DNA of 64,000 bases. Source: Cirrosporium novae-zelandiae. Its lineage: Eukaryota. Positions 55,291 to 60,118 of this stretch are shown here, one piece after another (within the stretch, counting starts at the first letter, position 1; every line of letters begins with the position of its first letter). The stretch is from positions 1,240,001 through 1,304,000 of the forward strand of contig JAPETS010000001.1 of the NCBI GenBank assembly GCA_026023565.1, in the 5' to 3' direction. The position numbers were made by a program, and so were the translations under genes. Under the pieces are notes generated by a model, which did no database searches, was not told where the DNA came from, and worked only from the letters and a program-made list of their open reading frames with translations.

Positions 55291-56363
55291 ATGTCATCGC
55301 AAAACAATCATTCCCAATTGGTAGCCTACTTAGGACCCCCCTCGTCATACTCCCATCAAGTTCGCCCTCTCTTTTCTTCTTTTTCTTCTTCACTTTCCCA
55401 CACCAACTCTCCCCTCCAAACTAACTCAACTTTTCCATCTAGGCCACTCTCTCGTACTTCTCGCACCTCTCCCCCACCTCCATAACCCCTGTTCCCACCA
55501 TCACCTCCATATTCCACCATGTCCACACTCGCGCCGTCACTTACGGCGTCGTCCCCTTCGAAAACAGCACCCATGGCTCCGTGGTGCAAACCCTTGACCT
55601 CTTTGCTGACCGCGAGGGTTCCTTTCCGGATCTTTTCGTATGTGGGGAAGTCTACCTCCCCGTGCGGCATTGCCTCTTAGTACACAAATCGAGCCGAATA
55701 AGAACAGAAGAAAAAGACGACAAAGCCACCGACATCTCGTTATTAAAAATAAAGACCATCTACTCCCACCCCCAGGCCCTGGGCCAATGTCAGAGATATA
55801 TCCATAAGCACATTTCCCCCTCGGTATCTCTCCAGGATGTCTCATCGACGTCGCGGGCTGCGGAAATAGTATCCCAAGATCCCTCGGGCACAACCGCTGC
55901 CATCGCGTCCTCGTTATCGGCACAGGCACATGGTCTCTCTATTCTCGCTGAGGGGATAGAAGATAGACCTGACAACGCAACTCGCTTCTTAATAATTCAA
56001 AAAGCCACAGGTGACGATAGCGACGGCGTAGAAGAAACTAGCAGCAATTCAATTCCACCCCCCAAATGCAAAACCCTTATTTCTTTTACAATCCCGCATA
56101 CCCTCCCGGGAGCGCTATCCGACGCCCTTTCCGTCTTCAAAGCTCACAGCCTAAATCTCACGAGCATAAACTCCCGTCCCAGTCGCGATAGGCCGTGGCA
56201 CTATGTGTTTTTTGTCGAAGTTGAGGGACGCAAAGGGAGTGAGAGAGGGAATGTAGTTGGGAGAGCGTTGGATGAGCTTAGTAGGGTTACGAGAGAAAGG
56301 AGATGGCTGGGGACCTGGAGAGATGCCTTGAGTGGGAAGAGTAAGAGAGAAGGAGAGGAGTGA
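55291..56363 (+). CDS. PHA2: Prephenate dehydratase; exons 55291-55359, 55443-56363
   Basis: VAYLGPPSSYSHQA, VVPFENSTHGSV, YSHPQALGQC, DNATRFL and an ACT domain (PGALSDAL..NLTSINSRPS). Confidence 0.95.
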
Positions 56364-56915
56364 CGAGATTATCGTCATGGAAGCTATATTAATGTCGTTT
56401 TGAGCTTATATTTTTCAACTAGGAACCGTAACATGACTAGAGCCACCTTCTGTAATAGAATAGGTTCAAAATACGAGGCGCCGGAGTGCAGGATAGCCCC
56501 ATTTACAGACTCCCAATGTACTGTACTCTACAAGGTTGAACGTGCTTCCCTTTCTAGTCGTGAGCTGTACCTTGACTGCTATTGATAACGGTAGCCATGG
56601 AGAATTTTAACCAACTCGACTAATTCGATTCGACTATTTTCTAGAAAGAACATGCAAGTAAAAGAATGTGGGGCGTCGTCTTCGACCAACAGATATTGGT
56701 ACAGAGACAGACATAGCAATATTGCATCACAAAGCAGCAACGAGGCTTCTGCAAGCAAAAAGCACATATCATAGATGGAAGGGTGGAATTGAAGCGGCGC
56801 GCATGCTCGACATGGTTAAATTAGGGGGTTTGACCATCGAGAACTTTTCTTCAGCGCCGAGCCTCTCTTCTCAGTATCGCATCAAAGAACACAGCAACGA
56901 CGTTATCAAGTCAAA

Positions 56916-57013
56916 CTTTTGAATAAGTTAGCTTAAACCTCCATGGCACCCGGGATGAATATAGAGAGACATACTCATCCTACTCGTCTTACTTGTCCAA
57001 TCCCGTCACTTAC
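56916..57013 (-). promoter_or_regulatory. Predicted 3'UTR intron of eRF1 (NMD-inducing element)
   Basis: Donor GTAAGT at 57013-57008 (alternative GTAAGA at 56992), branch point GCTAAC at 56932-56927 and AAG acceptor at 56916. The donor lies 149 nt after the stop codon. Confidence 0.7.
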
Positions 57014-57162
57014 AACATTGAGCTGCGATGCGGTCTTCGATTGGAAGATTCGTTATCGGCTTGAAGAACGTCGAAGCGACGTTCGTCGCGAAGAGCCGTC
57101 AGCTGGTTGTTTTCTGAAACCGCTGGACGGGCATCCTCGCTCCCGGCGAGGTTGCCAAACCG

Positions 57163-59078
<1,916 letters not shown>

Positions 59079-60118
59079 CTTGATGGGAGATTTCGCCGAT
59101 GGCGACGATAGCAGCTAAATGTGTAGAAGATATCTACGACTATTTAAGAACCACCGATGTTGAAAAGAAGGATAATGGGAGATTTAAGTGAAAGTAAGAG
59201 GAGGTAGATGATGATGATGATGGTGGAGGTGGTGGTTGTTTGAAAATTGAGATTGAAATGGTGGGTGGGTGGGACTAAAGTTCTGCCCTGCCTGAAGCAT
59301 TTGGGTCCCTAGGCACCACGCTGGTCCCAAAATAATAGTAAAAAAAAATAAGCTGGGCACTGAGAGAATGAGAGGACAGCGTCATCGGGGGGGTTCGGGG
59401 TGTCATGGTTAGCTCTACATGGATTTTGGATATTTGGACATCTATCCACAAAACCCATAAATTAATTACTTGTACTGTATCTAGATAATTACTTGTAGAA
59501 TTTAATGTAACCATTTTCGAGCAAGCTTGACCGGCCCGTCTTTGGTGGTCGATTAAATCATTCAAATGCCCCACCGCATTAAATCAACTTGGTAAATACA
59601 ACCCTTTCTACTTTGTAAACTCTACATTATCATCATCATCATCATCATCATTCCCTCATGCATTCTATCCCACATCTCCCACATGTCTCTCCATCTTCTA
59701 CCCTTTTTTTCTTTTTTTTTTCTTGGTCATTCTCTTTTTTCTACTTTTTTCTCTTACTATTCTCTATTCATTCGGCGCTTGTACATTTATTTCCCTGAAT
59801 TATTTGCCACTGGCCTTCAGAGTTTTTTCATTAAAGACTGGGGTTGTTTCGCCGACTTCCACCTGTGCACCCACCAAATCTTTCCATACCTTCTTATCTT
59901 CCACCTAAAAAAGATATCCTTTCACCTCCCGCTAGAGTAGTTCCAGACTCAATTCAAATTATTCTTTTAATCCGTGTGCTTGGCCGATCCAAGTTTTTAA
60001 CCCAACCCAACCCCCCCAAGTTTGTTTCCTTGTTATATTAAGAGTCCTCGAAGAAATATGAATTGAAATGTCTCCTCCCATCCAATCTTGAGTATTACGA
60101 GAAGGAAAGGAATAAACC

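Follow-up and report, generated by a model that had tools for sequence, protein, structure and literature searches.

The concentration of the release factor eRF1 sets the genome-wide balance of translation termination, stop codon readthrough and the nonsense-mediated decay of mRNAs (NMD), and its constancy is a basic question. In Neurospora crassa, erf1 is reportedly autoregulated by readthrough together with NMD dependent on an intron in the 3'UTR (3' untranslated region), as the title of Kurilla et al. 2020 (FEBS Lett 594:3504) states, and the abstract of that work reportedly proposes similar circuits in many fungi. The present analysis deals with the eRF1 gene of Cirrosporium novae-zelandiae (Pezizomycotina, class Xylobotryomycetes), which lies in a window of 64,000 nt (assembly GCA_026023565.1, contig JAPETS010000001.1, positions 1,240,001 to 1,304,000) and probably carries a feedback layout of the kind described for Neurospora erf1 and plant eRF1-1. 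Going by the title alone, the Neurospora system concerns the same gene in the same subphylum and the same combination of readthrough and 3'UTR-intron NMD; Neurospora belongs to a class other than Xylobotryomycetes.

In plants, the layout was defined by Nyiko (2017, PMC5397192). As defined there, an intronic readthrough/NMD (RT-NMD) 3'UTR combines a readthrough stop context, an intron located >50 nt past the stop, and a next in-frame stop near or beyond the exon junction. In eRF1-1 of Arabidopsis the intron lies 130 nt past the stop, with the following stop <25 nt upstream of the intron, and in the model given there, readthrough ribosomes strip the exon-junction complex (EJC). Release-factor autoregulation is regarded in the same paper as convergent in plants, bacteria and giant viruses, and fungal eRF1 is not discussed in it. 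The +1 frameshift of bacterial RF2 (prfB), also treated there, is alike in that the mRNA carries a recoding site through which the release factor it encodes senses its own level; in RF2, however, recoding makes the functional protein, whereas in eRF1 the protein is made by normal termination and recoding would only protect the mRNA. As for fungi, spliced 3'UTR introns of N. crassa elicit an NMD that depends on EJC factors, according to PMC10578600 and PMC6173133.

All coordinates below are those of the window, and the eRF1 gene with all its features lies on the minus strand. According to exon assembly and translation, the gene runs from the ATG at 59078 to the stop (57163..59078), comprises 11 coding segments and 10 introns of the coding sequence (CDS) of 52–75 nt, and encodes 434 aa with the C-terminal end ...EFYDD. 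The exon 8 peptide (174 aa) is up to 89% identical to proteins that bear the label peptide chain release factor subunit 1 and carry the Pfam eRF1 domains PF03464/PF03465. After the last CDS intron (57168..57225, 58 nt, GTATAC...CAG), the coding part of the next exon consists of no more than AT+TGA. The preliminary description of this DNA had placed the stop in a 5-nt coding exon, which holds for the coding part only, the exon itself being longer and running on as 3'UTR. Orthologues without this intron end directly in ...EFYDD*, equal to the spliced end in the window, and the splice is thereby validated. 

The comparative sample consisted of 80 fungal loci (designated by L numbers) from metagenome contigs encoding the exon-10 peptide. 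Loci sharing >=93% identity over 150 nt were treated as near-identical and merged, so that the 80 loci became 62 groups; together with the window, n = 63. The terminal CDS intron was modelled in 33/80 loci and was lacking in 47/80, with one case unresolved. Bypass of the TGA through an alternative 3' splice site of this intron was considered and rejected as a general explanation, since the 47 loci that are intron-less at this place read directly into the TGA.

TGA at 57165-57163 serves as the main stop and has CGG next to it (together 57160..57165), which confirms the preliminary description on this point. TGA is the main stop in 62/63 groups, and the +4 base is C in 59/63. The triplet after the stop is CGG in 24/63 groups, CAA in 16/63 and CAG in 10/63. 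According to Firth (2011, PMC3159437), UGA-CGG and UGA-CUA form the type II readthrough context, often with a 3' stem after a spacer of 7–12 nt. At the sequence level, the window has both the type II motif, UGA followed by CGG, and a readthrough-promoting stop context. The signal proves to be more than the leaky UGA-C context noted earlier, namely UGA-CGG of type II with a hairpin after an 11-nt spacer. Plant eRF1-1 uses TGA/TAG-CAATCA, and no hairpin is reported for it in PMC5397192, in contrast to UGA-CGG with a hairpin in the window; the similar CAA-type context TGA-CAA-T.. is used by 16/63 of the fungal groups. One locus, L002 (925-975), is the only one with TAA as the eRF1 stop; it has a 4-bp degenerate hairpin, and its frame is still open for 42 codons.

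Beyond the stop, 50 sense codons are open in the eRF1 frame (57013..57162, translated RFGNLAGSEDARPAV...HRSSML) up to the readthrough stop TAA (57010..57012), as described before. An alignment of orthologous 3'UTRs for an open frame had been suggested as a check, and in the present sample 63/63 groups have no stop in the eRF1 frame for at least 41 codons (median 62) beyond the main one, whereas the +1 and +2 frames are open in only 6/63 and 5/63. Of the off-frame control starts taken from comparable 3' regions, 16% have >=40 open codons, and by itself the 50-codon frame of the window is within chance expectation; it is the comparison with relatives that lifts the layout above chance. Indels also keep the frame: the hairpin loops have 5 or 8 nt, and L027 and L029 differ by ~60 nt.

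The extension's amino acid sequence is much less constrained. In 13 independent close pairs, differences at codon positions 1/2/3 numbered 91/106/119 (p = 0.155), and codon changes were 59 synonymous and 175 non-synonymous. A conserved protein domain was therefore rejected over most of the length of the extension, the third-position excess being absent. The conserved property appears to be the openness of the frame along with a few motifs. Since openness is kept while the sequence is barely constrained, the extension would fit a track for ribosome transit rather than a folded extra domain. The plant extension is described in PMC5397192 as ‘not conserved’ and without protein motifs, whereas the fungal ones have conserved N-terminal motifs and ends.

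A hairpin absent from the preliminary description, here called hairpin 1 (HP1), starts 11 nt after the stop (57135..57151) and consists of CCUCGC, the loop CGGGA and GCGAGG. The motif CCUCG[C/U]-loop-[G/A]CGAGG was found at the 11-nt offset in 72/80 loci; elsewhere in 369.5 kb of locus sequence nothing was found except its own antisense mirror, and the 64-kb window contains it once. In the 63-row alignment, 93.7% of cells are paired, compared with 34–59% when the partner is slid; the MAFFT program misplaced the 8-nt hairpin loops of L062 and L070, which counts against this pairing figure. L064 and L080 have U-A variants of the closing pair (CCUCGU/ACGAGG) in which pairing is kept. Within the stem, Leu is always encoded by CTC and Glu always by GAG, while the residue across the 3' arm varies (S/G/C/R), and this argues for a constraint on HP1 at the RNA level. 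The fold of the HP1 element in the window has an energy of -19.9 kcal/mol (z = -2.69). A search in Rfam gave no match at E<=1 in the region 56700-57300.

The motif is missing in eight of the 80 loci, in some of which another stem may take its place. Another small stem is predicted at approximately the same position in L043 (GGCUC/GAGCC) and L036 (GCUC/GAGC), and the same substitute can be drawn by eye in L032, L035 and L048, although for L032 the structure of lowest energy is another one; the substitute stems of these five divergent groups are individually weak.

HP1 is likely to be a stimulator of readthrough. It may be seen as a miniature version of the type II context with a 3' stem, its 11-nt spacer lying inside the 7–12-nt range. 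In the viral type II signals described in PMC3159437, UGA-CGG is likewise followed by a stem 7–12 nt after the stop and by downstream synonymous-site conservation. These viral stems, however, are long-range, with 10–12+ bp and loops of ~100–150 nt, whereas HP1 is compact (6 bp, 5-nt loop), possibly with a second small hairpin. In addition, viral readthrough serves a polyprotein, while eRF1 is a cellular gene in which the purpose would be regulatory.

For the 3'UTR intron, candidates were sought with a finder based on donor, branch and acceptor motifs and a length of 45–160 nt. A candidate was called compatible if it started >50 nt past the main stop and if the readthrough stop lay either beyond the junction or no further than 40 nt upstream of it. 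The preliminary description had proposed the donor GTAAGT at 57013 (57008..57013, 98-nt intron, 149 nt past the main stop, overlapping the TAA), with a CTAAC branch and an AAG acceptor ending at 56916, and, as an alternative, GTAAGA at 56992 (56987..56992, 77-nt intron, 170 nt past the main stop), 17 nt after the TAA at 57012-57010. All these signals are present. When the splice starts from 57013, the frame ends in ...SSMFLT followed by TGA 56908-56906, a stop located 10 nt past the junction, again as first described. A third donor, GTATGT (56974-56969), uses the same branch (56931-56927) and acceptor (56918-56916) and gives an intron of 59 nt (56916..56974), with the junction 188 nt past the main stop and 35 nt past the readthrough stop. 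All three donors have the RT-NMD layout.

The third donor is favoured because of its spacing from the readthrough stop, alignment with relatives and intron length. A short candidate intron (47–64 nt) starting 34–36 nt after the readthrough stop is found in 12 groups including the window, and in two further groups the distance is 29 and 31 nt. When the window is aligned to the clade of L028, L060 and L067, the donors of the clade adjoin the window GTATGT at 56974, and the window GTAAGT at 57013 aligns with the readthrough stop of the clade, TTG-TAA-G; several relatives have a non-donor sequence here (TTGTAAAT, TTGTAAAG, TTGTAGAC). The length of 59 nt is within the 52–75-nt range of the CDS introns, and that of 98 nt is outside it. 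GTAAGT at 57013 is probably a by-product of TTG-TAA-G, and GTATGT at 56974 is most likely the conserved donor, with 57013 and 56992 as possible minor ones. The intron of the preliminary description is thus supported along with its branch and acceptor, and its donor probably has to be moved.

Across the sample, a compatible candidate intron was found in 45/63 groups. In 24/58 groups a donor occupies the interval -6..+45 nt around the genomic readthrough stop, compared with 6.5% of same-strand and 10% of antisense control anchors (the 58 are the groups whose sequence reaches at least 250 nt beyond that stop, which removes five). Stronger evidence comes from related contigs that differ by the presence of the segment. 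Exactly the 55-nt GTGTGT...CCAG segment of L004 is missing in L006 and L009, and the same holds in L028 for exactly the 50/48-nt GTAAGC/GTGAGT...YAG segment of L067/L060. The 77/55-nt segment of L051/L020 is missing in L038, and L050 differs by 2 nt. In these relatives the introns lie 169–188 nt past the main stop, and the intron sequence has diverged, both flanks being conserved. Since the GT..AG segments are exactly missing in the short contigs, they are introns, whether these contigs are transcript-derived or represent intron-loss alleles; on this comparison, the 3'UTR intron is real in three related lineages. In addition, L004, L010, L012, L039, L048, L049, L057/L066, L064, L067 and L080, in which no CDS intron was detected (single tblastn segment), have kept a candidate 3'UTR intron, and for two of these, L004 and L067, the intron is confirmed by presence and absence.

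All three defining features of an RT-NMD 3'UTR, as claimed in the preliminary description, are thus found in the eRF1 gene of the window, and the leaky stop and the position of the next stop are kept in essentially all 63 groups. The predicted splice signals place the intron 149, 170 or 188 nt past the main stop, in each case more than 50 nt. The next stop lies where it should not elicit NMD: upstream of the junction by 35 nt (donor 56974) or 17 nt (donor 56992), or else 10 nt beyond it (donor 57013). The distance of 35 nt exceeds the plant figure of <25 nt and is inside the 50-nt rule (>=50 nt) quoted in PMC6173133.

Modelled on that of plants, the proposed circuit would operate as follows. 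After splicing, an EJC would be located ~20–24 nt upstream of the 3'UTR junction, itself 188 nt past the stop (149 or 170 with the other donors). Termination at the main UGA would leave this complex in place and mark the mRNA for NMD. UGA-CGG is expected to be leaky, and the hairpin 11 nt downstream would be positioned at the mRNA entrance of the ribosome. When eRF1 is scarce, more ribosomes would read through the 50 codons to the stop that lies 35 nt short of the junction (or slightly past it), stripping the junction complex and stabilising the mRNA. When eRF1 is abundant, termination would prevail and the mRNA would be degraded, so that the loop would be one of negative feedback. For this species, readthrough, splicing, sensitivity to NMD and dependence on eRF1 dose are all predictions made from the sequence layout.

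Several observations weigh against this reading. The covariation of HP1 is thin (three double-change cells, two of which are U-A at the closing pair, plus six G-U) because the stem is nearly invariant, and HP1 may be a sequence motif instead of a structure. Three donors compete in the window, the choice among them was made by homology, and the acceptor is AAG rather than YAG. The finder gave no compatible candidate intron in 14/63 groups with enough sequence, which include four intron-less contigs and L051, whose intron came only by homology; at the same time, it fires on 6.5–10% of control windows. Finally, the 63 groups are phylogenetically non-independent. Set against these points are the anatomy of the layout and its deep conservation, both of which are observed directly. 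The readthrough/NMD feedback layout is accordingly considered the probable reading, and the window a well-supported new example of a known mechanism.

Another explanation is that readthrough serves mainly to produce a C-terminally extended eRF1 isoform with a signal at its end, such as a peroxisomal targeting signal type 1 (PTS1), and that the 3'UTR intron is incidental. The canonical PTS1 consensus is [SAC][KRH][LM]. Tripeptides of this type end the extension in 15/63 groups (SRL in seven, SKL in one, ARL in five and AHL in two), compared with 26/5710 control ORF ends. At the first two positions several codons are in use (AGG/CGA/AGA/AAG; GCC/GCA/GCG). Selection on the peptide predicts such variation, which points to selection at that level; the groups with such ends also differ in stop context and hairpin type. 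However, the Leu codon is TTG in 14/15 canonical ends (16/18 with near matches), which hints at a possible RNA-level cause of the conserved ends. SML is the end found in the window and in L016, and SLL the one in L046; the end in the window is non-canonical and falls outside the PTS1 consensus, and it is lost altogether if donor 57013 is used. PTS1-like ends are absent in 45/63 groups, and most of the extension has no visible amino acid constraint. A second conserved end, ...(A)RPSPLRSV(M/T)TAS*, unrelated to PTS1, occurs in another set (L024, L040-L042, L044, L064, L071-L073, L078 and L080) and could again be taken in favour of an isoform with a signal. On the other hand, the conserved intron 34–36 nt downstream of the readthrough stop is left unexplained by the isoform. 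As the main explanation this one appears unlikely, and it is compatible with the feedback circuit rather than exclusive of it. Separately, L038, L050, L051 and L020 have a similar PS.LR.V motif just past the exon junction, which the readthrough frame crosses there.

It is also possible that readthrough and hairpin are real and that the 3'UTR intron in this species is unspliced or triggers no NMD, so that the arm acting on mRNA stability is missing. The AAG acceptor and the competing donors would agree with this, as would the related groups in which the finder detected no candidate intron and the five related contigs that lack it; if these contigs are genomic, the intron is dispensable in some lineages. 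Yet the splice signals are complete, and the AAG acceptor is not foreign to this gene: CDS intron 8 (57564-57615) has the same unusual type (…tttttgaaag|TCC). The donor position fits the 34–36-nt spacing of 11 other groups, and genes without a detectable CDS intron, such as L004 and L067, keep the 3'UTR intron. The loss of this arm is considered slightly less likely than the isoform explanation. Less likely again is that the elements after the stop form a 3'UTR signal for protein binding or localisation with no role in recoding. Conservation of HP1 in sequence with little covariation and without an Rfam match would suit such a signal, but it fails to explain why the eRF1 frame is open in 63/63 groups and why indels come in multiples of three, nor does it account for UGA with C at +4 and the fixed 11-nt spacer typical of recoding stimulators. 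The chance occurrence of splice-like motifs and an open frame finds some backing in the 16% of control starts that are open for >=40 codons; it is effectively refuted by the conservation of stop context, frame, donors and HP1 together with the presence/absence introns, and it is the least probable explanation.

Among these explanations, the RT-NMD feedback circuit is preferred, and it could be more elaborate in Pezizomycotina than the basic scheme. It is a tentative suggestion, and one we regard as rather doubtful, that HP1 (possibly with a second hairpin) sets the gain of the sensor and that extended eRF1 with PTS1 leaves the cytosol into peroxisomes and does not compete with normal eRF1. Extended eRF1 of plants has been reported as inactive in termination; by analogy, the same inactivity is assumed for the fungal extended protein. 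Extensions of this kind are known from the cryptic peroxisomal targeting of fungi (Stiebler 2014, PMC4207609), in which UGA readthrough likewise adds a PTS1 end, as it would in 15/63 of the eRF1 relatives. That system differs in that it concerns metabolic enzymes with a short UGA-CUA context, the term ‘eRF1’ occurs 0 times in the paper, and the SML end of the window is non-canonical. Neither a link between eRF1 and PTS1 nor a post-stop hairpin in fungal eRF1 was found in the literature searched, the text of the Neurospora erf1 paper being outside this search. HP1, the fixed spacing of donor and readthrough stop, and the PTS1-like ends could possibly be new.

The window adds an RT-NMD member from a little-studied fungal class, and essentially all 63 sampled fungal lineages keep the UGA-C context, a transit frame without stops, and a stop close to the 3'UTR junction. 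If unpublished, HP1 would represent a small natural cellular readthrough element, and the PTS1-type ends would point to a possible fate of an extended release factor.

The second hairpin (HP2) is tentative. In the window it corresponds to CAGCGGUU...AACC(A)GCUG (57100..57126), and its 3' side lies inside a conserved box CTGACGG (57102-57096). A box YUGACR, always in phase 0, is located at +48..+66 in 28/63 groups, compared with 45/515 background windows, and the YUG in it would supply the 3' side of the putative HP2, which is closed by CAG/CUG. The RNAalifold program predicts the helix on 16 equally spaced sequences (16 of the 28 box-bearing groups, with identical spacing). Its five base pairs are paired in 91.3% of cells versus 25–41% when slid; double-change cells number seven, and the covariation score is attained by 0/500 shuffles. 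However, a generic stability test in 62/63 groups (one was left out) showed no gain of the +30..+70 window over the +95..+135 control (median z -0.53 vs -0.41, p = 0.34), and HP2 is held tentative because of this negative result. Its support consists of pair counts in the chosen subset only, as z-scores from segments cut at complementary boxes are biased.

The stop context UUGACGG (57160-57166) is echoed 60 nt downstream as CUGACGG (57096-57102), with the TGA out of frame. In many relatives a copy of the 5' arm of HP1, CCUCGC/CUUCGC, comes after this echo. Pairing of GCGAGG with this downstream copy was considered and dropped, since the copy is absent in many groups.

As for the surroundings of the gene, a prephenate dehydratase gene (55443-56363, plus strand), 100% identical to a protein labelled C. 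novae-zelandiae, is convergent to eRF1. Its stop is 799 nt from the eRF1 stop, and the short intergenic space is common to both 3'UTRs. A record of Chaenotheca gracillima contains a homologue of prephenate dehydratase (317 aa, PF00800) labelled ‘Polypeptide release factor (eRF1)’; this label is probably a naming mix-up between adjoining genes, which would imply a conserved adjacency of eRF1 and prephenate dehydratase. On the other side, CCACC/CATCAT repeats are located directly 5' of the eRF1 start region (~59200-59260, minus strand), in the leader or promoter.

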